DNA of 64,000 nucleotides, taken from the NCBI GenBank assembly GCA_021814695.1, contig JAKAHY010000002.1, forward strand, positions 8,920 through 72,919. The letters are read 5' to 3'. The notes below the pieces were generated by a model, which saw nothing but the letters and a program-made list of their open reading frames with translations, was not told the DNA's origin and searched no databases. The stretch is from a bacterium (GTDB lineage: Bacteria > Patescibacteriota > Minisyncoccia > UBA6257 > JAGOQP01). Positions 1,931 to 62,453 of this stretch are shown here, in pieces (the first letter of the stretch is position 1; each line of letters opens with the position of its first letter). The translations under genes and the position numbers were made by a program.

Positions 1931-2152
1931 TTAGCCGCGCTTCGCTTTGGAGGATGCCGAGACCTTGTGAGTCCCGGCGACGGCCACGCCGCGGTTGGCG
2001 GTGGCCAGGTCGGCCTGAGTCCTCCGCTTGGCCGCCCGGTTCGCGTGCTTGACGCTGTGACGGTCCTTGGGCGCGGTCTTGCCGCAGCGCCCGTTGGGGT
2101 GGCGGTTGCCGCCACCCGAAACCCGACAGTGACACAGTTCGCACACGGCCAT
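1931..2152 (-). CDS. Small (73 aa) highly basic Cys/His-containing protein encoded with strongly GC-rich codons; weak N-terminal resemblance to ribosomal protein bL28 (MxVCxxC...GGNRH), otherwise unknown
   Basis: ATG with strong SD GGGAGGTG 4 nt upstream, its own sigma70-like promoter and a terminator. About 68% GC with GC3-rich codons (AAG, AAC, GAC, CAC) in a roughly 40% GC genome. Confidence 0.55.
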   Translation of the reverse strand: MAVCELCHCRVSGGGNRHPNGRCGKTAPKDRHSVKHANRAAKRRTQADLATANRGVAVAGTHKVSASSKAKRG

Positions 2153-2219: not shown

Positions 2220-2231
2220 TATTTATGGGAA

Positions 2232-2266
2232 AACAAAATCACCCGCAAGGGGTGATCTTATTTTTG
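2232..2266. terminator. Bidirectional terminator (downstream of the GIY-YIG gene)
   Basis: ATCACCC-gcaa-GGGTGAT with T-runs on both sides. Confidence 0.55.
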
Positions 2267-2290
2267 TGGAGATGGGAGAGTTGGCTCCGA

Positions 2291-2530
2291 CTAAACTAAA
2301 TGCTTGTTTCTAAAAGCTATTCCCGAACCACTTTTCAGATATTTTTCAAAGTTGATCGCCTGTTCCTTGTTATGAAAAGTGCAGTGCCAAGCAATAATAA
2401 ATGGCGCTCTACTTGAGCTATATTTGGAACCATAACTATTATGTTCCAATAGTCTTTTCTTAATATCAATTGTGATGCCCGTATAGAAACTCCCATCTTT
2501 TAAACTGCGAAGAATATAGACAAAATACAT
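2291..2530 (-). CDS. GIY-YIG nuclease-domain protein (small stand-alone UPF0213/YhbQ-like)
   Basis: 79 aa; the YFVYILRSLKDGSFYTGITIDIKKRLLEHN motif matches the GIY-YIG core. Confidence 0.85.
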   Translation of the reverse strand: MYFVYILRSLKDGSFYTGITIDIKKRLLEHNSYGSKYSSSRAPFIIAWHCTFHNKEQAINFEKYLKSGSGIAFRNKHLV

Positions 2531-2597
2531 ATTATCTATAATTATATGGCCCTCCTTCGCATAAAGCTACGGAGGACTCACTACTCGCACCATAAAA

Positions 2598-2626
2598 CTC
2601 CCCAGATGGGGAGTTTTATTGCAATG
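2598..2626 (-). terminator. Terminator downstream of tmRNA
   Basis: AAAACTCCCCA-tc-TGGGGAGTTTT, perfect 11 bp stem followed by TAT. Confidence 0.5.
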
Positions 2627-2672
2627 CTTCTTGTGCAAGGAGTGCTTGCACTACGAAGCCTTGGCGAAGTAG

Positions 2673-2988
2673 TGGAGATGGCGAGAGTTGAACTCGCGTC
2701 CAGAAAGAGGGATTGAAAGCGTCTACGGGCGTATCTTCTTTTGGAAGCTGATTTGCTTTCTGATTGTCCCTACGGATACGAAAGCGCTTTCCGTGGGTAA
2801 GCCTCAAATATAACACCGGCGATTTCCCCATGAGACATCGGGAGCCGATGGCTTACGCACGAACTAAAAAGTTCTTAAGCGTATGCAAGTGCTACATTTC
2901 TGTTAGCAGATTTGTTTTGGCGGATTTACAAGTCGCCGCTTGACCCGCAACTTTCAAAGAACTCTATCTGTCAAAGCCCAGCATCCCC
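2673..2988 (-). ncRNA. ssrA: tmRNA (SsrA)
   Basis: Minus strand: 5' GGGGATGCTGGGCTTTGACAG... and 3' ...GGACGCGAGTTCAACTCTCGCCATCTCCA (T-arm plus acceptor, CCA not encoded). Immediately downstream of smpB. Putative tag ORF GCT AAC AGA AAT GTA GCA CTT GCA TAC GCT TAA, giving ANRNVALAYA. Confidence 0.85.
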
Positions 2989-3426
2989 TTAGGCAATATG
3001 TTTTCTTACTTGGCGCTCGGTTTCCCTTTTTTTAATCGTTTCTCTCTTATCCGTTTTCTTCTTGTGAACGCCCAGTCCTATTTCAAGCTTTATTTTACCG
3101 CGCTTGTTATACAGCTTAAGGGGCACCAGAGTCAAGTTTTTGGATGATGCTTGACCGACAAGAGCGATAATTTCCGACTTTTTTGCCAAAAGTCGGCGCG
3201 ATCGGCGAGGATCGAAATCTTTGGGTGTATTTTTCTCCTGGTAGGGGCCAATTGTTGCGCCAACCAGCCAAAGCTGTCCTCCATAAATTTTAACCAACGA
3301 CCCGACAACACTGGCTTTACCGGAGCGGATAGCTTTAGCCTCATGGCCCAAAAGTTCAATTCCGGCATTTAAAGTGTCGGAAATTTCGTAATCAAAATAG
3401 GCTTTTTTGTTTTGGATTGATTCCAT
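2989..3426 (-). CDS. smpB: SsrA-binding protein SmpB
   Basis: 145 aa; KAYFDYEI...GIELLGHEAKAIR...VPLKLY is a typical SmpB sequence. Confidence 0.95.
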   Translation of the reverse strand: MESIQNKKAYFDYEISDTLNAGIELLGHEAKAIRSGKASVVGSLVKIYGGQLWLVGATIGPYQEKNTPKDFDPRRSRRLLAKKSEIIALVGQASSKNLTLVPLKLYNKRGKIKLEIGLGVHKKKTDKRETIKKRETERQVRKHIA

Positions 3427-3470
3427 CTGTTTATTTATGATAGTGCCTTGTGGGATTTTTTTGCAAGCGA

Positions 3471-3481
3471 TGTGATATAAT
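3471..3481 (+). promoter_or_regulatory. Extended -10 promoter TGTGATATAAT. The same element precedes the genes at 5697, 8397 and 52626, all with short SD-less leaders
   Basis: Identical 11-mer at 3471, 5688, 8367 and 52583; variants at 10652 (ileS) and 18999 (ppsA). Confidence 0.5.
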
Positions 3482-3498
3482 GAAACAAATAAAAAACT

Positions 3499-5643
3499 AT
3501 GAAAAAATCTTCATTAATCGTGGTCATTTTGCTTGTTGTGGCAAGCGTAGGAATGACCGTCATCTTTTCAAATCAAGTGTCGATAAAGGGATTTCTATCG
3601 AGCGTTTATTCTACTGCATCAGGCAGAAATCATATACAGCTGGCAAACGCTCAGTCCTTGGGACAGGGGGTTGTAGTTTTTAAAGCGCAATTTGGCCATT
3701 TGGAAGCAACCGGCCAAGTTGTCTCCGGTATTTCCGGACTAGCGGGGCTGCCGGTGACAAAATTTGTTCCCGACAGAGACCTTTCGGATTCTGAAAAAAA
3801 GCAGGTTGAAGTAAACATCACCGAAGAGAACACCGTTTTCGGATTTATTGTGGCAAAAAACGTTTCATTAGGGCAGGGAATCGGTTTTAACATTCCCCAA
3901 GGAGAAGTTTATAACTACGGTTTTTATGTGAATTCCGACATCCTTCCTCAAGGATGGACATATAACTCTTCTTGCGTAGAGACGGGAGGAAATATTAAAT
4001 TATCTGCCGGCCAACAAAGCGAATGCACGATAGGTTTTTATCTGAAACCAACGCCTGCGCCGGTTACTCCTCCCGCTTCGACGTCCACTCCCGTCTCACC
4101 TCAGGAAGGAGCGTCAGGTACCGTTATTAGTGAAGATTCCGGTTCTGGATCGCTGCAGTTTGTAAAAAATATTTTGGACTTAAGTACGGGGTGGAAAAAC
4201 CCCGGATCGGATAAAATATTGGACGCAAAAATCGTTGAATTATACGGAAAGAAATTTCTTATTGTTTCGACTCAAAACAAACATTTGCTTGTTTACGATG
4301 CTTCAAACCAGTTTTCGCCGGTTCTTTTGAAAGATAATGATTTATCAGGCAGTAACGTGTCGGCGTTTTATCTTGTGGTTTTAGATAATTTCAATTACGT
4401 ATTTGCCTGGGGAGGAAACTCTGCCAACTACGGATCTTTTAAGATTGAACAAGACGGATCTGCGTCTCTGGTAAAAAGTTACAAACCTGACCAATATAGC
4501 GTTACTCAACCGAATTTGGTTTTCGGGTTGTTTAGAGGGTTAGACGGTAAAGCGTATGGATTTGGAGGGAACGGGGGCGATGGATGGCTAACTATTTATG
4601 ACGTGTCCGATCCGGCAAACATCAGCGAAATTGGATCATATCAAGATGGCTTAGTCGGGAATCACTGCGGCAATTATGGTCTGATTGGATTGGACAGGCC
4701 GCTTCAATGGAATACTTCTCAACAAGGGAACAAGCTTTATCTGGTAACTCATGCGGACCAGTGCGTCCAGCGGCTGCATACTTCCGGAGACGCCAGAATT
4801 TATATTTTTGACGTTTCTGATCCAAAAAATCCGCAGCTTTCCCATCAATATGAGCTTTCCGGTTCTTTTAACCACATACCTTCGGACGCGACTAAGGCCG
4901 AACAGACATTTCTTTTTGGCGGGATCGCCGACATTGCCGTTGATTCAAATTCGGGTAAGGTTTTTGATTTTTACAGGACGGTTTTTGATTGGCAGGGGCC
5001 ATCCTGGTCTCAGATAGCAAACATAGTGCATGGTACTTTGTTTAGATACAGAACCGGACTGGTCACTCTTTCACTGCAATCGGACGGTTCTCTAAAAGAA
5101 TTGTCGCGGGCTTTATTGTGCGAACAAAAGGGCCCAATGTATGATGGTGGCGGTCCGCAATATTATCGATGCGGCGACGTGGATGGAAACGACAAAAATA
5201 CCCAAGGCGGATATGATTATTCGGCAAGAAATTCTCAACAAAATTACAACGGAGTTTTTCTCCTCAGTGGGCCGGGAAATAGCGGTCAGGTGGGCTTACT
5301 AAGGAGTGATAATAGTTTTGTTGTCATTCCCGATACCGCCGGAGAGATGACTAAATTTAAGACGGCTATTAAAGATTCATCTTATTATTCGAATATCTAT
5401 AATCCCGCTATCAATGGTGTTGTGACCCAGGTTGACAGTAAAACATTTGCCATCTATCAATTTGATAGTTATTCGTTAAGCGTCGTTAAGGTTTTGTTGT
5501 CGCAATCTCTTGTGGGGGGATCGAAAAATCCCTCTCCTCCAGTGACCGGAGTTGCGCCTTCGGCAAACGTACCACTAACATCACCCGCATTTTCATTTAA
5601 TGCGCTCCTGAACATCTTCAGAAGGATACTTAACAACTACTAA
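3499..5643 (+). CDS. Secreted/surface LVIVD-repeat (beta-propeller) protein, paralog 1
   Basis: N-terminal signal/TM segment; repeated (Y/I)xDVSDPxNP LVIVD-like motifs; Pro/Ser/Thr linker; conserved C-terminal tail AFSFNALLNIFRRILNNY. Confidence 0.7.
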   Translation: MKKSSLIVVILLVVASVGMTVIFSNQVSIKGFLSSVYSTASGRNHIQLANAQSLGQGVVVFKAQFGHLEATGQVVSGISGLAGLPVTKFVPDRDLSDSEKKQVEVNITEENTVFGFIVAKNVSLGQGIGFNIPQGEVYNYGFYVNSDILPQGWTYNSSCVETGGNIKLSAGQQSECTIGFYLKPTPAPVTPPASTSTPVSPQEGASGTVISEDSGSGSLQFVKNILDLSTGWKNPGSDKILDAKIVELYGKKFLIVSTQNKHLLVYDASNQFSPVLLKDNDLSGSNVSAFYLVVLDNFNYVFAWGGNSANYGSFKIEQDGSASLVKSYKPDQYSVTQPNLVFGLFRGLDGKAYGFGGNGGDGWLTIYDVSDPANISEIGSYQDGLVGNHCGNYGLIGLDRPLQWNTSQQGNKLYLVTHADQCVQRLHTSGDARIYIFDVSDPKNPQLSHQYELSGSFNHIPSDATKAEQTFLFGGIADIAVDSNSGKVFDFYRTVFDWQGPSWSQIANIVHGTLFRYRTGLVTLSLQSDGSLKELSRALLCEQKGPMYDGGGPQYYRCGDVDGNDKNTQGGYDYSARNSQQNYNGVFLLSGPGNSGQVGLLRSDNSFVVIPDTAGEMTKFKTAIKDSSYYSNIYNPAINGVVTQVDSKTFAIYQFDSYSLSVVKVLLSQSLVGGSKNPSPPVTGVAPSANVPLTSPAFSFNALLNIFRRILNNY

Positions 5644-5656
5644 AAATTTAAAATAA

Positions 5657-5686
5657 AGCCCCCTGTAAATACAGGGGGCTTTTTGA
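5657..5686 (+). terminator. Rho-independent terminator
   Basis: AGCCCCCTG-taaata-CAGGGGGCT followed by TTTTT. Confidence 0.6.
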
Positions 5687-5696
5687 ATGTGATATA

Positions 5697-8321
5697 ATGA
5701 AACAAATGAAAAAAACATTACTCATCGGGTTTATTGTGGTCGGCATTGTAAGCTTTTCGGCATTTACCGCGCATGCTCAGTCGGTCAATTATCTTAGTAA
5801 ATTTTTTGCAGATGTCTACGGAGCGTTTTTTGGGAATTCCCAAACGCAAAAAGTTGACGCCCAAACAGTGGGTAATGGAACACTTACTATTCATGCTCAG
5901 ATATGTCAGACGCTCGGGAATTTCGAAAATCCAAGCAGTGCGACCTGTTCTGGTACTCCTCGCGACCCCAATTCTACGGAGTCTCCGTTATTTGTTTATG
6001 ATGTCCAGCGCATAGTTGGGAATGGAGCGAGCGCTCAAGTTACCACAGTTCTTTCAGGTATCGGTCCCGGACAAAGTTATTCGTTACCGGCGAATACTCC
6101 AAACGCTAGTAATAATAACAGAGATGAGTACGTGATTGTGTTTAAGGGGGCACCGACAAATTATTTGTACGTGAGACAAGGAGGAAATTTTGATTTGCCC
6201 TATAAATTTTCAATTTCTTCCGGACAAAATACTCAAGTAAATATTCCTTATGTTATTTATACGGCGATTGAATCAACGGGTCCTGTTGGCACTACTGTTA
6301 CCGCCGATATTGTTGATGGCAATGGAAATTTTGTCAGAGCGCTGACGGCTTCAGAAATTCAATCGGTATCCTTTGACATCCAGCATTCGGTTCCGGCCAC
6401 CGGAGGATATGTCGGATCGCATGCGAACAATTTTGATACTCAAGTTTCTTCGGGAAAATTAAATACTTCATATCAGCTTGCGACCTATGTCCATTCCGGT
6501 TCAATTTTGACAAATATTAAGCCACCATCCGGTTACGTAGTCAGATCAATTAAGCCGGGAACATATTTTGATCCTACTGATGACGTTACTATTCATTTTA
6601 CCAAGTCTCCTGTTTCGTCTCAGGTTCAAAAAGTTGATCAAATGCTCTATGTTCCTAATGGAATTAGCTATGTAAAAAAAATAGCTCAAACATATTCGGA
6701 CAATGAATACAAATATTCGAATCTTGACGTTGATTTATTTGCTTATTATGGAAACAATAATCGTCCTTTTCCCTTGAACTGGACAGTTGCCAAATATTCG
6801 GGAGTTCCTTATTTGTTTATGAATGGAGCAGGAAAGATAGTTATTTATAATATTTCCGATCCTAAAAATCCCAAACAAGTTAGTGAATATGTTCTTTCCG
6901 GTTTGGAAAAATTTAATCAATACAAAGATCGTCAGGGAAATACTTATGGACAGTGTTCTCCTAACCAAGAAGGTACTCATGATTTTATAACTGGAGCCGG
7001 TAAAGTTTTTGCTCTTGATGATTCCCCTTATCTTTTGATTGACATTCAGAGACCGGGTGGGCCAGGCCCTGGAGGGACGGCAGTTTTGTCCTTAGATCCT
7101 TCAACTATGGCCATAACCGCCTATCCTCAATGGACCGAGTGTAACAGTGGTCAAGATACTCCCGGAACCGCTTTCGGAATGTATAAAGGAAGTGACGGAA
7201 ATACTTATTTTATTTCCCAATTCCCGAATAATGCATATGATACGGGTGGAGTAGATACCGGGAATATTGGTATTTACACAATCAATTCTGCTGGTATTGC
7301 CAATAAAGTTGTCGTTCTCAGCGGAATGTCCGGGATTGCTCCGAGTTTGGATTATTCTAATGGAACAATCTCTGTTGTTTCCGTTGGAAGTAAAAAATAT
7401 CTTATTGGTAATGGAAAATCATCTATCGCAAACATAAATTCGACCAGTGCACCAATTTATATTTACGATATTTCCAATCCAAAAAATATAATCAAAATCA
7501 ATCAACAGATCACGGTGTCTACGTCTGGGTCCGGCAGATTAAAAATTGACGAACAAGCCAATCGTATGTATGTTCAGTCATCCATTCCAAATCCTGCCGC
7601 AACATCAACTTCGTACACCATCCCCAAAACATTACCTATTTGGCAGGTATATGACTTGAGTGTTTTGCCCAGTACTCCAAAATTAATTGCTACTTATAAC
7701 AAACCAACCGACCTACTTAATTCAAGTCAAGTGAATGCTGATTTTTCTCAAATTACCAAGAGATTAAATATTGCATCGTCAGGTAATCTTGTGGATATAA
7801 ATAATTCTTCTTTCACTTACGGCGCCTACGGATATTCTTCTTCACTCCAGTTGATAAATGTTTCAAATAATTTAGCTTATATATCACTGTATACAAACGG
7901 AAAAAACCCTTGGGATACGATTGCCAATCAAGCCGGAGTAACGGACGGAAGCGAATACGGGACCAATGCTATTCAATTTATAGTTGACGTGTCCAATGCG
8001 TCCAGTCCCAAAATACTTGGAATGATATTCGGGCATACGGAATATTCTGCTTACGGACTTTCCGCCGGCGGATGGTTTGATGTTCCTCTTTACGGAAGTA
8101 TCTATAACTATAACGGATATATTTACCGAGCCAATTTCCGCATCGCTGATGTATGGAAATTGGGGAATCCTCCGGCCCAAAGTACGGGAGGTGCTGGAAG
8201 TGGGGCTGGTGCGAGCGGCACTGGAACTACCGAAGGAGGATCTGCGCCATCATCAGTTCAATCTCCATTTTCTTTCAGTTCTCTTTTGAAGATATTCCAG
8301 AGAGTGTTTAATAATCAATAA
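5697..8321 (+). CDS. Secreted LVIVD-repeat protein, paralog 2 (874 aa)
   Basis: Signal peptide; IYNISDPKNPK and IYDISNPKNI repeats; Gly/Ser/Thr linker; tail PFSFSSLLKIFQRVFNNQ. The likely start may be the second ATG at 5706, which would make the mRNA leaderless. Confidence 0.65.
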   Translation: MKQMKKTLLIGFIVVGIVSFSAFTAHAQSVNYLSKFFADVYGAFFGNSQTQKVDAQTVGNGTLTIHAQICQTLGNFENPSSATCSGTPRDPNSTESPLFVYDVQRIVGNGASAQVTTVLSGIGPGQSYSLPANTPNASNNNRDEYVIVFKGAPTNYLYVRQGGNFDLPYKFSISSGQNTQVNIPYVIYTAIESTGPVGTTVTADIVDGNGNFVRALTASEIQSVSFDIQHSVPATGGYVGSHANNFDTQVSSGKLNTSYQLATYVHSGSILTNIKPPSGYVVRSIKPGTYFDPTDDVTIHFTKSPVSSQVQKVDQMLYVPNGISYVKKIAQTYSDNEYKYSNLDVDLFAYYGNNNRPFPLNWTVAKYSGVPYLFMNGAGKIVIYNISDPKNPKQVSEYVLSGLEKFNQYKDRQGNTYGQCSPNQEGTHDFITGAGKVFALDDSPYLLIDIQRPGGPGPGGTAVLSLDPSTMAITAYPQWTECNSGQDTPGTAFGMYKGSDGNTYFISQFPNNAYDTGGVDTGNIGIYTINSAGIANKVVVLSGMSGIAPSLDYSNGTISVVSVGSKKYLIGNGKSSIANINSTSAPIYIYDISNPKNIIKINQQITVSTSGSGRLKIDEQANRMYVQSSIPNPAATSTSYTIPKTLPIWQVYDLSVLPSTPKLIATYNKPTDLLNSSQVNADFSQITKRLNIASSGNLVDINNSSFTYGAYGYSSSLQLINVSNNLAYISLYTNGKNPWDTIANQAGVTDGSEYGTNAIQFIVDVSNASSPKILGMIFGHTEYSAYGLSAGGWFDVPLYGSIYNYNGYIYRANFRIADVWKLGNPPAQSTGGAGSGAGASGTGTTEGGSAPSSVQSPFSFSSLLKIFQRVFNNQ

Positions 8322-8330
8322 TAATTTGAA

Positions 8331-8360
8331 ACAATCCCCCTAGCTGGGGGATTTTTTTGC
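8331..8360 (+). terminator. Rho-independent terminator
   Basis: ATCCCCCTAG-CTGGGGGAT followed by TTTTTTT. Confidence 0.6.
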
Positions 8361-8396
8361 AAGCAATGTGATATAATAAAACAAATAAAAATAACC

Positions 8397-30299: not shown

Positions 30300-30340
30300 C
30301 AAAAACAAAAATTACCCAAACGGGTAATTTTTGTTTTGGG

Positions 30341-30466
30341 TGTTGACGGGGTAGGATGCGGGGTGGTCGAGGGGCTGCAAGCCCCTCGTGTTGGAAATTA
30401 TTCAAAACCGAGGGTTTTGAAGGAGCGAATATAATGAGCGACGTCCGATTTCCCGTTACCCGCTCA
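30341..30466 (+). repeat. tRNA-trailer mini-element copy E1 (ends with a duplicate of the tRNA-Gly(GCC) 3' end)
   Basis: Contains hairpin CGAGGGGC-tgcaa-GCCCCTCG, then tgttggaaatt, then aaaccgagggtttt, ending in tcccgttacccgctca. Confidence 0.6.
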
Positions 30467-30502: not shown

Positions 30503-30650
30503 TGTCCGCCCGGAAGGGAGTCTCACGTCGCTCCGACATTGCGTCGGAGCTCCCAAGACACCCTCGGTTTCTTGACGCTCCTCCGGAGCTTTTTCCTACA
30601 CGGGAGATTAAGCATCTCCCGACCCCTCTCTATTCAATTCCTTGTTGACG
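30503..30650 (-). repeat. tRNA-trailer mini-element copy E2 (minus orientation; ends with a tRNA-Lys 3' end duplicate)
   Basis: Minus strand: aattgaatagagaggggtcgg, hairpin GGAGATGCTTAATCTCC, cgtgtaggaaaaag, cgtcaagaaaccgagggtgtcttggg, then gtgagactCCCTTCCGGGCGGACA. Confidence 0.6.
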
Positions 30651-30689
30651 AACAAAACAAAAAATATTCACAAAGGATATTTCTTATTT

Positions 30690-30826
30690 TGTCCGCCCGG
30701 AAGGGAATCTCACGTCGCTCCGACCTTGCGTCGGAGCTCCTTAAAACCATTCGGTTTTAATATTTCCTCCACGGAAAACCTTCGGTTTCCCGACCCCATC
30801 CGATTTGATTCCTTTACTGACGAATA
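30690..30826 (-). repeat. tRNA-trailer mini-element copy E3 (minus orientation; ends with a tRNA-Lys 3' end duplicate)
   Basis: Minus strand: ggaatcaaatcggatggggtcgg, hairpin GGAAACCgaaGGTTTTCC, gtggaggaaatat, hairpin TAAAACCgaatGGTTTTA, then gtgagattCCCTTCCGGGCGGACA. Confidence 0.6.
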
Positions 30827-30865
30827 TAAAACAAAAAGCACCACAAGGGTGTTTTTTGTTTTCTG

Positions 30866-35509: not shown

Positions 35510-35544
35510 AAATCCCATTCGGGATTTTTATTTTTGCTTGGACT

Positions 35545-35681
35545 CCGGAAATTGAATCAGAAGGGGTCGGGGAACCTGTGGTTCCCCGTGTAGGAAAAAG
35601 TCCGCCCTGGGCGGACGTCAAGAAACCGAGGGTGTTTTGGGAGGAGTGAAACGACGACGTGAGATTCCCGGCAGCCCGACG
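35545..35681 (+). repeat. tRNA-trailer mini-element copy E4 (ends with a tRNA-Pro 3' end duplicate; followed by a second terminator and a 5' fragment of another copy at 35730-35748)
   Basis: ggaaattgaatcagaaggggtcgg, hairpin GGAACCtgtGGTTCC, cgtgtaggaaaaag, hairpin GTCCGCCctgGGCGGAC, cgtcaagaaaccgagggtgttttggg, ending gtgagATTCCCGGCAGCCCGAC. Confidence 0.6.
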
Positions 35682-35772
35682 AAAATAAAATTCCCCTTTA
35701 GGGGAGTTTTATTTATGTTTGGGTTTCAGGGGAATTGAATCGGAAGAAAAATGTTCTTAAATTTGATATACT

Positions 35773-47791: not shown

Positions 47792-47839
47792 CTCCGAGCA
47801 TGTCTCGGAGATTTTTTTAATCAAAAAATAATATTTGAA

Positions 47840-47960
47840 AATATCCCGACAAGTGAGGGGATTTTGTATAGTCCTTCTTCGCATAAAGCTTCGAAGGACA
47901 CTTTTCGTCTGGCTTGCACTTCGTAGCTCGCCAGGGCGAAGAAGTGAGCGGGTAAGGGGA
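47840..47960. repeat. Perfect about 121 bp direct repeat, copy 1 (duplicate of the tRNA-Gly(TCC) 3' end plus about 105 nt of trailer)
   Basis: Identical to 48069-48188. Confidence 0.8.
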
Positions 47961-48068
47961 AGTCTTACGCTCACCCCCGACCCCCGCTTAAGAAACCTTC
48001 GGGTTTCTTACGTCCCTATTTTCCAACACGGGGGTTCGCATTCGACTCCCAAACTCACCCACAAAAAA
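47961..48068 (-). repeat. tRNA-trailer mini-element copy E5 (rearranged family member) sitting between the two 121 bp direct repeats
   Basis: Minus strand carries gtgttggaaaatagg, hairpin GACGTAAGAAACC-cgaa-GGTTTCTTAAGC and gggggtcggggg modules. Confidence 0.5.
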
Positions 48069-48188
48069 ATATCCCGACAAGTGAGGGGATTTTGTATAGT
48101 CCTTCTTCGCATAAAGCTTCGAAGGACACTTTTCGTCTGGCTTGCACTTCGTAGCTCGCCAGGGCGAAGAAGTGAGCGGGTAAGGGGA
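48069..48188. repeat. Perfect about 121 bp direct repeat, copy 2 (overlaps the true tRNA-Gly(TCC) 3' end and trailer)
   Basis: Identical to 47840-47960. Confidence 0.8.
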
Positions 48189-48245
48189 GTCGGACCCCTC
48201 TCATCAGCTTGGAAAGCTGAGGTAATACCGATATACGATACCCGC
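48175..48245 (-). tRNA. tRNA-Gly(TCC)
   Basis: Minus strand: GCGGGTATCGTATATCGGTATTACC TCAGC TTTCCAA GCTGA TGAG AGGGG TCCGACT CCCCT TACCCGC T. Same unusual T-loop as tRNA-Gly(GCC). Confidence 0.7.
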
Positions 48246-48307
48246 TTAATGTGAATAAAGGTAACAAATTTTCTTGATTTTTTCAATAACTCAGGTAATC
48301 TGAGCGT

Positions 48308-59607: not shown

Positions 59608-61344
59608 ATGGAGAACAAAGTTCTCATTGACAAGTTAATTGCATCGGGCGCACTGAGTCAGGATAACGGGCAGAAGCTTCTTCAAGAAGCTTCTTTTGCC
59701 AAACGACCAGTGGAAGAACTCATGTACGAAAGGAGAATTATTCCCGAACAAGCGCTGATGGATGCAAAGAGCCAGCTTCTTAAAGCGCCGTATAAAAAAA
59801 TTGACCCGCAGTCTATTACCGACCAAGTTTTGAAAACAATTCCGGAAACTACCGTAAGAAATTTTAAAGTTGTTCCGATTGAGTTAAAAGAAGATCTGTT
59901 AGTTGTCGGTATGGTTAATCCCGACGATGAGAAGGCCCAGGATGCGCTAAAATTCATAGCCAGGCAACTGAGGGTGAATCTTGGAATATATCTTATTCCC
60001 ATGTCTTTGTGGGACACGATCCTGAGAAGATATTCTCCATACCGGAGTGAAGTTGAAGCGGCAGTGAAATCTATTTCGGCTTTTGGTAAAAAAATGACGC
60101 CGGCATCCCAGATTGTTCAATTGGAAGCTGGCCAGACCGGAGCGGAAGATGCTCCAATCATCCGCATAGTGGCATCAACTTTAAAAGAAGCGGTTTTTGA
60201 GCAGGCGTCAGATATACATATAGAGCCTCAGCGTAATCGACTGCGTATTCGTTTCAGGCTTGATGGGGAATTGAGGGAAGTGGCCTCAATGCCTCTTGAG
60301 CTTTATCAGCCAATCGTTTCGCGCATAAAAGTCCTTTCGGATTTGAAAATAGACGAGACTCGTGTTCCTCAAGATGGGCGCTTTAGGACAATGTTAATGG
60401 GAAGGGATATAGACTTTCGTGTTGCGACATTTCCGACTCCGGTAGGGGAAAAAGTAGCAATACGTGTTTTGGACCCGACTGTCGGGCTGAAGGGGCTTAA
60501 GGAGCTGGGGCTTATGGGAAGAAATTTGGATATTATTCAGCAGGGAATAGAAAAGCCTTACGGCATGGTACTTATCACCGGACCAACCGGTTCGGGTAAA
60601 ACAACGACGCTGTATGCTTTGATGCAGGGACTTAACAACGATTCGGTTAATATCGTCAGCTTGGAAGATCCTGTGGAATATTATATGGACGGATTAAACC
60701 AGTCCCAAGTACACCCCGAAATAGGATACGACTTTGCTTCCGGACTCAGACAGATTCTAAGACAAGATCCCGATATTATTATGGTCGGTGAAATTCGCGA
60801 TAATGAAACTGCGGCACTGGCCGTTCATGCGGCTCTGACCGGACACATTGTTCTATCGACGCTGCACACCAATAACGCAGTCGGAGTTATTCCTCGTCTT
60901 TTGGATATGAAAGTCGATTCATTCCTTATCCCGGCATCGCTAAACTTGATGGTTGGCCAGCGCCTGATTCCAAAACTTTGCCAGCAATGCAAAGAAGAGA
61001 AGCAACTCACTCCGGATTTAACCAGAGAAATGGAAGCTACTCTTAAGGAAATATCCGAAGAGGACAAAAAATCTTTTGGTATAGAAGCTCCTTATAAAGT
61101 TTACGAATCCAAGGGTTGCTCCGCGTGTAAGGGCAAAGGAATTTCCGGACGTATAGCAATGTTTGAAATATTAAGAATGACTCGGGAATTGGCGGAAGTC
61201 ATCAGTCGTAAGGGAACCGAGGGCGATATTGTTAAGGAGGCGGAGCGACAACATATGATTACTTTGCGCCAGGATGGGGTGATGAAGGCGGTTAAAGGTT
61301 TGGTATCTTTGGAAACCGTTCTTCGTGAAACGGAATTGATGTAA
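59608..61344 (+). CDS. pilB: Type IV pilus assembly ATPase PilB (GspE family, full length)
   Basis: N-terminal GSPII_E_N-like domain, Walker A GPTGSGKTTT and a C-terminal Cys tetrad. Confidence 0.9.
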   Translation: MENKVLIDKLIASGALSQDNGQKLLQEASFAKRPVEELMYERRIIPEQALMDAKSQLLKAPYKKIDPQSITDQVLKTIPETTVRNFKVVPIELKEDLLVVGMVNPDDEKAQDALKFIARQLRVNLGIYLIPMSLWDTILRRYSPYRSEVEAAVKSISAFGKKMTPASQIVQLEAGQTGAEDAPIIRIVASTLKEAVFEQASDIHIEPQRNRLRIRFRLDGELREVASMPLELYQPIVSRIKVLSDLKIDETRVPQDGRFRTMLMGRDIDFRVATFPTPVGEKVAIRVLDPTVGLKGLKELGLMGRNLDIIQQGIEKPYGMVLITGPTGSGKTTTLYALMQGLNNDSVNIVSLEDPVEYYMDGLNQSQVHPEIGYDFASGLRQILRQDPDIIMVGEIRDNETAALAVHAALTGHIVLSTLHTNNAVGVIPRLLDMKVDSFLIPASLNLMVGQRLIPKLCQQCKEEKQLTPDLTREMEATLKEISEEDKKSFGIEAPYKVYESKGCSACKGKGISGRIAMFEILRMTRELAEVISRKGTEGDIVKEAERQHMITLRQDGVMKAVKGLVSLETVLRETELM

Positions 61345-61382: not shown

Positions 61383-62453
61383 ATGACTGACTACAAACAG
61401 AAACTGAACGATCTTTTGTTGATGTGCGCCAAACAAGATGCTTCCGACCTGCATATTGCCGTTGGGCGCCACCCGACTTTGCGTATAGACGGAGCATTGG
61501 TTCCGCTGACAAAAGAATTAATATTGACACCCCAGGATGCCGAAGGCCTTGTTTTGGCTTTATTGACCGAATCTCAGAAGGGCGAACTTGCCTTGAAAAA
61601 ACAAGTCGACTTTTCTTATTCCTATGAAGACAAAGCGCGGTTCAGGGTAAATACTTATTATCAGCGCGGATATATGGCTGCGGCTTTGCGTTTAATTCCG
61701 GCCCAAATCAGAACAATTGAGGAACTTAAATTACCTCCGATACTGCATGATTTTGCCAATCTGTCACAGGGATTCGTGCTTGTTGTGGGTCCGGCGGGAC
61801 ACGGCAAGTCAACGACGCTGGCCGCCGTTTTGGATGAGGTAAACCATAATCGCACGGAACACATTGTCACCATTGAAGATCCGATAGAATATATTTTCGT
61901 TCAGGATAAAAGTATCGTTTCCCAAAGAGAGGTGCGGACCGATGCTATGGATTTTTCGCAGGCATTGAGATCGCTTCTCAGACAGGACCCGGACGTAGTT
62001 ATGATAGGAGAAATGCGCGATACGGAATCTATTGCAACTGCCTTAACCGCAGCCGAAACCGGACACTTGGTTCTTTCAACTCTTCACACCAACTCCGCTT
62101 CTCAAACAATCGACAGAATCATAGACAGCTTTCCGGCCGAACAGCAAAGTCAGATAGCTTCTCAACTTGCGGCAACGCTTGTGGGAATCGTTTCCGAGCG
62201 TCTTATTCCACGAATCGAAGGAGGCCGTGTTCCGACTTGTGAAATTATGATAGCCAATCCGGCCATAAGAAATTTAATTCGGGAAAGAAAAACCTATCAG
62301 ATAGATTTGGTTATAGAAACTAATGCTCAAGAAGGAATGATCACGCTCAATCGTTCGTTGGCGGATTTGGTGCGCCGCAGGGAAATAAGCTTGGAAAATG
62401 CCGAGTTGTACTCTCTCAATCCTTCCGAGTTAAGAATCCTTTTGGAAAAATAA
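61383..62453 (+). CDS. pilT: Twitching-motility retraction ATPase PilT
   Basis: GPAGHGKSTT and LVLSTLHTNSA motifs. Confidence 0.9.
   Translation: MTDYKQKLNDLLLMCAKQDASDLHIAVGRHPTLRIDGALVPLTKELILTPQDAEGLVLALLTESQKGELALKKQVDFSYSYEDKARFRVNTYYQRGYMAAALRLIPAQIRTIEELKLPPILHDFANLSQGFVLVVGPAGHGKSTTLAAVLDEVNHNRTEHIVTIEDPIEYIFVQDKSIVSQREVRTDAMDFSQALRSLLRQDPDVVMIGEMRDTESIATALTAAETGHLVLSTLHTNSASQTIDRIIDSFPAEQQSQIASQLAATLVGIVSERLIPRIEGGRVPTCEIMIANPAIRNLIRERKTYQIDLVIETNAQEGMITLNRSLADLVRRREISLENAELYSLNPSELRILLEK

Follow-up and report, generated by a model that had tools for sequence, protein, structure and literature searches.

Downstream of the transfer-messenger RNA (tmRNA) gene ssrA in a Patescibacteria genome (GenBank assembly GCA_021814695.1, contig JAKAHY010000002.1), on the minus strand of the analysed 64,000-nucleotide (nt) stretch (the window), lies an insert made up of a hairpin (H1), a segment bounded by an inverted repeat, part of which is formed by the last tmRNA bases, a second hairpin (H2), a gene for a 79-amino-acid GIY-YIG nuclease and a repeated copy of the tmRNA 3' end. 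About 0.4 kb long, the bracketed segment has the GIY-YIG protein as its sole coding content. An H1-H2 module without the nuclease gene is present behind tRNA-Gly(UCC), one of eight tRNA genes in the window, while the other seven carry no hairpin. Contigs of GCA_027423305.1 match the window without a single difference over 1676 nt. The features of both loci are collected in Table 1, and H2 is the main subject of this report.

A sequence-only reading of the window had described H2 as a hairpin with compensatory stem changes shared by the two trailers, with a further copy at 47871-47899. The H2 pattern, GTCCTYCG-N-AGCTTTATGCGAAG-RAGGRC, occurs three times, and exact matches to GTCCTYCGNAGCTTTATGCGAAG were found on the minus strand at 2555-2577, 47877-47899 and 48105-48127, with no further match in the window when 3 mismatches were allowed (0 expected from 100 shuffles). 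The full hairpins span 2549-2577 (GTCCTCC/GGAGGGC) and, with GTCCTTC/GAAGGAC, 48099-48127 and 47871-47899. The last of these is present as claimed but is not independent. Positions 47838-47960 and 48066-48188 form a 123-nt direct repeat of 100% identity, and because 47871-47899 falls within it, the independent H2 copies in the window are two rather than three. In the fold of every copy, a stem of 7 bp leads through a 3x3 internal loop (G-N-A over G-A-A) to a GC stem of 2 bp that is capped by a UUUAU loop, and the energies are −18.1 and −14.3 kcal/mol (z −4.5 and −4.1). The stems differ by an exchange of a T-A for a C-G pair, and the tmRNA copy additionally has U-G in place of U-A.

The block upstream of H2 (CGTAGTGCAAGC in the tmRNA trailer, CGAAGTGCAAGC in the tRNA-Gly trailer) turned out to be common to both trailers as the second hairpin, H1, which has the H2 architecture on the opposite strand: cactacGAAGCCTTGGCGAAgtagtg at 2649-2674(+), and cacttcGTAGCTCGCCAGGGCGAAgaagtg at 48145-48174(+) and 47917-47946(+). 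At the tmRNA locus H1 begins, on the tmRNA strand, at the final tmRNA bases, and its stem shows compensatory changes in related loci (L083 and L200-L206; loci are designated by L numbers). Scanning the 64 kb with a generalised architecture returned exactly six sites, three H1 and three H2, against 0.14 expected, and an unfiltered covariance model (R1) gave no sites in the window beyond those six. A REPIN-like doublet was considered and rejected, as the H1 and H2 stems differ and are not inverted copies of one another. Plus-strand open reading frames (ORFs) over the window copies (2546-2716, 47835-48254) only translate the repeat, so that a coding fragment was likewise discarded. At the gathering threshold Rfam reported only the tmRNA and tRNAs in the window, and no family for the hairpin emerged when both trailers were scanned by E-value. 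The U tract that would directly follow the stem of an intrinsic terminator is missing from H2, which is followed by CCAUAUAAU at the tmRNA locus and UAUACAAAAU at the tRNA-Gly locus, and a terminator scan of the window did not call H2.

The inverted-repeat pairing (P1) behind the tmRNA closes a domain that contains GTGCAAG..CTTGCAC and a terminator-like hairpin. The minimum free energy fold of 2531-2674 reaches −64.8 kcal/mol (z −7.9), compared with z −4.4 for the tRNA-Gly trailer, and both folds show the P1 plan. Because the terminator scan flagged none of the minus-strand trailer hairpins, including 2593-2617, we call them only terminator-like. The TATAAT box at 2541-2546 possibly represents the GIY-YIG gene's own promoter, judging from its sequence and position; a promoter scan found no −35 box for it. 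The start codon at 2530 lies 18 nt past the last H2 stem base (2549), rather than the 20 nt given earlier. At the tmRNA locus we favour a DNA-level role for H2, since it sits past the terminator-like hairpin 2593-2617 and 2 nt ahead of the TATAAT box.

By PDB profile search, the nearest solved relatives of the GIY-YIG protein are the UPF0213 proteins BH0048 and EF2693 (PDB 1zg2, 1ywl) and SLX1, and within the catalytic domain Y5, Y16, G18, R26, H30 and E62 are invariant in the alignment. The NCBIfam group I intron endonuclease model matched residues 2-39 only, under its cut-off. An exact look-up of the protein gave no match, and the ORF is uncalled in the public record of the same genome.

Table 1. 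Features of the tmRNA and tRNA-Gly(UCC) loci in the window
Feature	Position	Strand	Basis and remarks
tmRNA gene ssrA	2672..2988	-	ARAGORN; Rfam RF00023, 114.6 bits; immediately after smpB (2989-3426, -)
H1, tmRNA side	2649..2674	+	cactac GAA GC CTTG GC GAA gtagtg; architecture scan, fold; R1 14 bits, E 0.19
P1-closed domain	2579..2674	-	long-range inverted repeat, CACTACTTCGCC (2663-2674) pairs with GGTGCGAGTAGTG (2579-2591)
Terminator-like hairpin in P1 domain, upstream of H2	2593..2617	-	AAAACTCCCC-ATCT-GGGGAGTTTTA; sequence and fold
H2, tmRNA trailer	2549..2577	-	GTCCTCC/GUA/GC UUUAU GC/GAA/GGAGGGC; pattern and architecture scans, fold; R1 48.8 bits, E 2e-10
TATAAT box	2541..2546	-	2 nt after H2, 10 nt before GIY-YIG ATG; sequence
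GIY-YIG nuclease gene, 79 amino acids, UPF0213/SLX1-like	2291..2530	-	Pfam PF01541, 5.4e-14; PDB profile matches; alignment
Duplicate of tmRNA 3' end	2266..2290	-	TCGGAGC, then CAACTCTCCCATCTCCAC (2266-2283); begins in T-loop, closes inserted segment
Terminator-like hairpin behind duplicated tmRNA end	2230..2265	-	stem 2238-2256, scan-reported on plus strand; sequence
tRNA-Gly(UCC) gene	48175..48245	-	ARAGORN and Rfam scans
H1, tRNA-Gly trailer	48145..48174	+	directly after discriminator base; architecture scan; R1 23.2 bits, E 8e-4
H2, tRNA-Gly trailer	48099..48127	-	pattern and architecture scans, fold; R1 47.1 bits; preceded by P1 pairing of 48165-48173 with 48128-48135
Terminator-like hairpin with T run, after H2	48063..48093	-	sequence, fold
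Non-coding mini-element core	47961..48065	-	homologous to four others in window; alignment
123-nt perfect repeat	47838..47960	-	tRNA 3' end, H1 (47917-47946), H2 (47871-47899), terminator

Distribution and placement of the hairpin family

Scanning one genome per species for the exact 21-nt core TYCGNAGCTTTATGCGAAGRA returned matches in at least 119 species genomes, and the hairpin is thus conserved well outside this genome. According to their taxon labels, the 119 listed comprise about 75 Patescibacteria from all major classes, 11 unclassified genomes and 33 from other groups (Gammaproteobacteria metagenome-assembled genomes (MAGs), Babeliales, Flavobacteriaceae, Balneolaceae, Planctomycetota, Verrucomicrobiota, Rickettsiales and others). 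At least 2 of these 33 matches, in a Brucella ABC-F gene and an Actinomycetota ORF, lack the stem and appear to be due to chance. The Y/R stem pair is C-G in 95 of the listed copies, T-A in 16 and a mismatch or wobble in 8, where 3.3 T-A pairs would be expected under independence. In the alignment of the 119 sequences 81% of cells are paired, compared with 43-52% when the partners are slid, and in 500 shuffles the pairing, the number of double changes and the covariation score always fell short of the values observed. The two window copies by themselves are weak proof of covariation, but the 119 genomes support it strongly, and exact matches, folds and covariation alike show that the hairpin is real and its stem changes compensatory.

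Members of the family consist of a stem of 6-10 bp, followed by a 3x3 internal loop (5' G-N-A versus 5' G-A-A), a two-pair GC/GC stem and an apical loop, with a total length of 29-37 nt. The internal loop is invariant while the stem covaries, and the apical loop is UUUAU in the window variant and UUUA, CUUG or a longer insert in relatives. A full-text search for the DNA, RNA and peptide strings of the hairpin found no paper within the library covered, and literature on GIY-YIG proteins together with palindromes or tRNA concerned mostly fungal mitochondria, plus a paper on SegB (PMC13096335). H2 thus appears to belong to a widespread and apparently undescribed family of DNA hairpins of about 30 bases. 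Nothing points to a phage as its carrier, since the sole viral-contig match, a pair of hairpins in a spacer, comes with neither a tRNA nor a GIY-YIG gene. DNA uptake sequences, dif and attC were set aside, the density being too low and sequence resemblance lacking.

The sequence-only reading held that the motif follows tRNA-like 3' ends specifically and would fall if copies were scattered without such association or were not conserved. Only 19 of the 119 listed copies (16%) lie within 300 nt of a tRNA or tmRNA gene on any side or strand, and the remaining 84% lie elsewhere, in protein genes and RNase P RNA among other places, which contradicts the claim of specificity. The copies are thus mostly scattered, but proximity to tRNA/tmRNA genes is nevertheless enriched 4.5-fold over the 3.6% that the local density of tRNA genes would predict (p about 5e-8), and the hairpin is conserved.

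This enrichment would suit a trailer signal, active as RNA on the 3' side of tRNA-like transcripts, for 3' processing, exonuclease protection, termination or anti-termination. H1 and P1 include the last bases of the tRNA and covary, H1 and H2 of tRNA-Gly lie ahead of a terminator-like hairpin and would be transcribed, and a similar module is found behind tRNA-Gly in a Jacksonbacteria MAG (L039). However, the tRNA-distant majority has no place in such a model, and the copies that are near tRNA genes occur upstream as well as downstream, on either strand. In the closest relatives neither H1 nor H2 follows the tmRNA gene (see below), H2 of the tmRNA trailer is found beyond the terminator-like hairpin and beside TATAAT, and of the eight tRNA genes in the window seven have no such hairpin. 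In addition, for copies inside ORFs it is the opposite strand that is present in the mRNA. We therefore consider a trailer signal very improbable, and the 3'-processing or anti-termination role proposed earlier is disfavoured.

Inside ORFs of at least 120 amino acids we found 22 of the 119 listed copies (about 18%), all of them antisense and in a single frame that yields the peptide (P)PSHKA(S/T)(E/D)G. Among the proteins encoded by the host ORFs are UvrA, LeuRS, a Mur ligase (MurC), a radical-SAM enzyme, FemAB, UvrD helicase, TypA/BipA and GatB. In alignments to solved structures, the hairpin peptide falls in a gap of 11 residues for E. coli BipA and of 6 residues for GatB, and the in-frame insert unit is about 33 nt (11 codons). 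In TypA an insertion hot spot lies between KNTSIFY and TKINIVDTPGH (L047, L003 and Patescibacteria homologues). The plain four-residue linker YKDT is present in 97 of the 117 closest homologues, and the other 20 have an insert at the same site, either of 11 amino acids (PPSHKASEGQ and decayed forms), of 7 (PSxxSGRxxT) or of other kinds, indicating that the site is polymorphic among close relatives. Four genome loci with TypA carry the hairpin at three distinct sites. Many of the gene calls for these TypA proteins were truncated, on long contigs as well.

A structural RNA carries the hairpin as well. The RNase P RNA of a Gracilibacteria MAG (L010, 1975-2392) contains an exact hairpin at 1997-2017, just ahead of the conserved GGAAAGUC strand. 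In some loci (L021, L060, L073) the hairpin caps a terminator stem, and in L040 one hairpin is nested within another.

The GIY-YIG cassette and its presence among relatives

The earlier reading had also pointed to a possible link with the adjacent GIY-YIG gene. Within 1.5 kb of the 119 listed hairpins GIY-YIG is the only recurring non-housekeeping family (8 loci), and no transposase or integrase family recurs over that distance. The hairpin-adjacent GIY-YIG copies form a subfamily with the C-terminal motif FEKYLKSGSGxAF, and we collected an independent sample of 80 loci of this subfamily from metagenome contigs. At least 52 of 78 loci have a tRNA or tmRNA gene upstream on the same strand, 30-600 nt from the start codon and mostly within 340 nt. 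The upstream genes are tRNAs of about 20 identities, with tmRNA in 7 loci. A sense hairpin occurs within 150 nt upstream of the ATG in 34 of 72 loci and the opposite-orientation type in 32 of 72, compared with 2 of 72 in shuffles. The covariance model R1 gave 51 hits in 193 kb, distributed over 37 of the 80 loci, and some hits immediately follow the stop codon. The link to the nuclease gene is therefore systematic, by architecture and by covariance model, and it is mirrored in the lack of the hairpins from close relatives without the gene.

The spacers follow a recurring plan, namely tRNA 3' end, H1, CAAGC, variable hairpins, GCGAAG-nn-TG, H2 and ATG. In P1, the first bases past the tRNA together with its last bases pair with the GCGAAG-nn-TG block. 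At least 11 contiguous P1 pairs were found in 8 of 21 related loci versus 3.7% in a control, and variable positions covary. TATAAT precedes the GIY-YIG start in 7 of 76 loci versus a background of 1.6%, too few for an own promoter to be a general feature of the cassette.

Such an arrangement raises the possibility that the hairpin regulates the GIY-YIG gene in cis. As an RNA stem it might mask the ribosome-binding site, or stabilise the 5' end of an mRNA released by cleavage of a tRNA co-transcript; as DNA it might be an operator over the −35 region of the gene's own promoter. The other copies would then be by-products. The 3' end of the hairpin lies 3-34 nt ahead of the ATG in 24 of the 34 loci, GGAGG frequently forms its 3' strand, some 5-13 nt from the ATG (for example in L092, L126 and L130), and TATAAT follows the hairpin by 2-12 nt in the window, L083, L122, L200 and L205. 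Many cassettes are, moreover, promoterless and 30-150 nt behind a tRNA. By contrast, the stems covary freely away from GGAGG (gggtggc, ggcgggc, gtagggc, agatagc), the window stem is 18 nt from the ATG, and Shine-Dalgarno sequestration, fitting a minority of loci only, was rejected as a general role. Cis-regulation also leaves unexplained the in-frame inserts, the RNase P RNA copy, the copies after stop codons and all those copies, roughly 90%, that have no GIY-YIG gene beside them, and we regard it as an unlikely account of the family.

In 10 of 46 loci (22%; at least 15 of 20 nt matching) the tRNA 3' end is duplicated 4-74 nt past the GIY-YIG stop codon, versus 1.4% in a control, and the duplicated ends always begin in the T-loop. 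T-loop-starting repeats are reportedly the classical signature of tyrosine integrases that target the T-loop. The inserts could accordingly be seen as bracketed islands mobilised by an integrase in tRNA/tmRNA genes, with the hairpin as attachment site or remnant, and the window does contain the corresponding direct repeat (2266-2283). However, the brackets measure only 0.2-0.45 kb and contain no integrase, no integrase family recurs near the 119 listed hairpins, and the hairpin lies outside the repeated junction. About 20 tRNA identities would each need a matching attP. This explanation is thus highly implausible. An attachment site for the mini-elements of the window (see the last section) had been suggested earlier, and it is not supported either: their direct repeats begin in the tRNA T-loop and the hairpin is outside that junction.

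We then compared the smpB-ssrA-infC interval among close relatives. In L212/L213 (SmpB 87% identical) GIY-YIG, H1 and H2 are absent between tmRNA and infC (no model hit at E ≤ 1), and a non-coding insert ends in a tmRNA 3'-end duplicate. The three are also absent from that position in L214 (SmpB 79%), which has the same kind of non-coding insert. In L215/L216 (SmpB 74%) all three are present, with three H1 copies. Four further loci (L200, L204-L206), whose GIY-YIG proteins are 70-73% identical, have all three in the full H1-P1-H2-TATAAT-GIY plan with compensatory stem changes, and L205 and L206 carry an extra H2-like hairpin and tmRNA-end duplicate past the stop codon. This pattern of presence and absence indicates that H1 and H2 travel with the nuclease gene and not with the tmRNA. 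The sequence ...TTTAGTC(A/G)GAGCC plus the duplicate closes the non-coding insert in L212, L214 and L215. The post-stop sequence of the window, TCGGAGCC followed by CAACTCTCCCATCTCCAC, matches the 3' end of the non-coding insert in L212-L215, and the cassette thus lies within, or has replaced, such an insert, with the junction at the shared TTTAG.

Some details of these relatives were also recorded. Between smpB and ssrA, L214 has an AT-rich insertion of about 150 nt (490-640) with the antisense hairpin GCCCTCCTTCGCACAAGGCTTCGGAAGGGC, which is not found in the window or L212, and its tmRNA was not called by ARAGORN. In L215/L216 the region 2360-2990 is built of units in the order tmRNA, H1, non-coding core, 21-nt tmRNA-end duplicate, H1, terminator, H2, GIY-YIG, H1 and terminator, and the repeated units suggest serial segmental duplications.

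A candidate mobile hairpin compared with known systems

H2 is not a feature of tRNA-like RNAs as such, but a module of a composite insert behind tmRNA/tRNA genes. Most likely, the H2 family of short GC-rich stem-loops spreads across lineages and acts at the DNA level. With moderate confidence, we read H2 as a mobile hairpin of the REP/RPE kind that belongs to a tRNA-flank GIY-YIG cassette and is a candidate substrate of its nuclease. In this model the GIY-YIG cassette would be a selfish element landing at tRNA/tmRNA genes, with the hairpins as its structure-specific recognition or cleavage sites and boundaries. Solo hairpins, whether intergenic, in RNase P RNA or as 33-nt in-frame inserts, would be non-autonomous copies that relate to it as REPs relate to RAYT genes. 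The hairpin would then be mobile, and the nuclease may act on the hairpin, on the T-loop region of the tRNA gene, or on both. A stronger form of this proposal, which we put forward only tentatively and regard as rather doubtful, is that the minimal nuclease of about 79 amino acids (SLX1/UPF0213-type) and hairpins of about 30 nt constitute a new RAYT/REP-like mobile system in Patescibacteria and several phyla, whose cassette would home to the tRNA/tmRNA T-loop or 3' end, and whose nuclease would mobilise solo hairpins in trans into intergenic DNA, structural RNAs and, as in-frame units of 33 nt, essential genes.

Several observations weigh against the mobile-hairpin reading. The window has just two independent H2 copies (plus H1 copies) per 64 kb, far below a classical REP family, and about 111 of the 119 listed copies have no GIY-YIG gene within the 8 kb read. 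The 79-amino-acid protein lacks a DNA-binding domain, with PF01541 spanning residues 1-67. The taxa of the non-Patescibacteria MAGs are labels as deposited, and loop conservation is overstated, since the pattern used for the exact scan prescribes the loop. At some loci the GGAGG of the 3' stem strand is at Shine-Dalgarno distance from the ATG, and this spacing together with the TATAAT boxes makes a cis-regulatory role possible for gene-proximal copies. Finally, the TypA inserts of L003 and L047 are nucleotide-identical despite diverged genomes, which could reflect selection on function and not recent insertion.

These identical same-site inserts with diverged flanks are also what might be expected if the hairpin were a binding site for a conserved host factor, such as a nucleoid or replication protein, or a neutral structural module or stable cap, spread by recombination without a dedicated enzyme. 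The nearly invariant internal-loop strands and apical loop across phyla, the use as terminator tips and the placement at the RNase P RNA 5' end point the same way. We know of no candidate factor, however, and such a model explains neither the strong and specific adjacency to one GIY-YIG subfamily nor the patchy presence among close relatives, so that it appears quite unlikely to us.

The mobile-hairpin reading invites comparison with systems already described. On testing the defining features of REP/RPE or SegB-like systems, which the hairpin does not share in full, we take it as a variant of those kinds and not a member. REP/REPIN elements and their RAYT transposases have been reviewed (PMC3184786). 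Like them, the present hairpins are palindromes of about 30 nt, imperfect and with conserved unpaired bases, which are dispersed in many copies and in both orientations, also as inverted pairs, and which flank a small nuclease gene whose product is the presumed mobilising enzyme. They differ in that this gene encodes a 79-amino-acid GIY-YIG protein and not a Y1 HUH (IS200/IS605-like) transposase, in the lack of a fixed GTAG head, in the copies inside ORFs and structural RNAs, and in a sequence that is the same across phyla and not species-specific. Whereas REPs are extragenic with hundreds of copies per genome, the density is low here and about 18% of the listed copies are inside ORFs.

The Rickettsia palindromic elements (RPEs) are inserted in-frame in protein genes, as outlined in that review (Ogata et al. 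2000, cited in PMC3184786). The likeness is that of palindromic selfish DNA placed in-frame in housekeeping genes, where it adds a surface peptide, and also in RNA genes and intergenic regions. RPEs, however, are about 105-146 bp in length, fall into RPE-1 to RPE-8 and are confined to Rickettsia, compared with about 33 nt and mainly Patescibacteria, with other phyla too, in the present case; in the outline cited, moreover, RPEs come with no associated gene.

SegB of T-even phages is a GIY-YIG nuclease that, in the account consulted, co-localises with tRNA genes, cuts within them at RAWTSGAAC and drives tandem amplification (PMC13096335; Brok-Volchanskaya 2008 cited there). We read this motif as the T-loop region. 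Here, too, GIY-YIG genes are found systematically beside tRNA genes of many isotypes, and the catalytic domain, the position beside tRNA targets and the presence/absence between relatives are features in common. SegB produces tandem duplications of tRNA segments by microhomology, and the window has T-loop-anchored duplicates and, at tRNA-Gly(UCC), a 228-nt tandem unit. By contrast, SegB is phage-borne and comes, as far as that account describes it, without hairpin modules, whereas the present gene is chromosomal and encodes the catalytic domain alone.

In length SegB exceeds the 79-amino-acid protein about three times and possesses a DNA-binding domain. SLX1 is a structure-specific endonuclease that cleaves branched and stem-loop DNA, and this preference fits a hairpin substrate for the GIY-YIG protein. 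UPF0213 and SLX1 are its closest sequence relatives, from which it differs by its own C-terminal motif. To our knowledge, bacterial UPF0213 proteins have no documented function or genomic association with hairpins or tRNA genes. The GC clusters or mobile hairpins of fungal mitochondria are short, GC-rich and spread in AT-rich genomes and genes alongside GIY-YIG homing endonuclease genes; they differ in being organellar and of unrelated sequence.

H2 would otherwise be annotated as a tRNA/tmRNA processing signal, and the evidence assigns it the architecture of selfish DNA, in a family whose identical core is very widespread. The association ties a UPF0213/YhbQ-type subfamily to insertion behind tRNA/tmRNA genes, to a duplicate running from T-loop to 3' end and to a candidate substrate. 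If the nuclease-hairpin system proved to be new and mobile, it would represent the first function for bacterial UPF0213 proteins. The hairpin-derived insertions of 7-11 residues recur in essential Patescibacteria proteins (TypA, LeuRS, UvrA, GatB, MurC, UvrD) and bear on how proteins of reduced genomes gain loops as well as on gene calling in MAGs.

Mini-elements and other features of the window

Five homologous mini-element cores sit behind tRNA-Gly(GCC), tRNA-Lys (two in tandem), tRNA-Pro and tRNA-Gly(UCC). They are located at 30337-30466(+), 30690-30834(-), 30503-30655(-), 35524-35682(+) and 47947-48062(-). The common blocks are GGGGTCGGG-hairpin-CCCGTGTAGGAAA, AAACCGAGGGT and GAGCGACGTGAGAYTCCC. 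Each mini-element has its own terminator-like hairpin and is closed by a duplicate of the tRNA 3' end, starting in the T-loop. The same layout with a different core is found behind the tmRNA in the relatives L212-L216, where the 5' end GTGGAGATG is complementary to the duplicated CATCTCCAC. The mini-elements gave no Rfam match, and they might be small tRNA-like RNAs or non-autonomous insertions.

ARAGORN reported the tag peptide EAYPRKALSYP for the window tmRNA, probably a mis-call. The tag region reads GCT AAC AGA AAT GTA GCA CTT GCA TAC GCT TAA (ANRNVALAYA*), and relatives have ANYNLAPAYA*. Between the GIY-YIG cassette and infC lies a 73-amino-acid ORF (1931-2152, minus strand) with 69% GC, compared with 41% for the window. 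Its product is basic with a Cys-rich N-terminus and looks L28-like by eye only; it has no Pfam match, is conserved in L214 and is an annotated gene in the public record of the same genome.

A promoter-like block, TTGCAAGCGATGTGATATAATGAAAC, is conserved at 3449-3499, 5686-5716 and 8345-8395, ahead of three large secreted-looking paralogs (3499-5643, 5697-8321 and the next ORF) that share 70-76% DNA identity across long stretches. Paralogous gene fragments of a GspE/PilB-like secretion or type IV pilus ATPase were found at 97-705, 60745-60810 and 61965-62030, and multiple fragments of this type would presumably be in keeping with dependence on pili and DNA uptake in a Patescibacteria genome.

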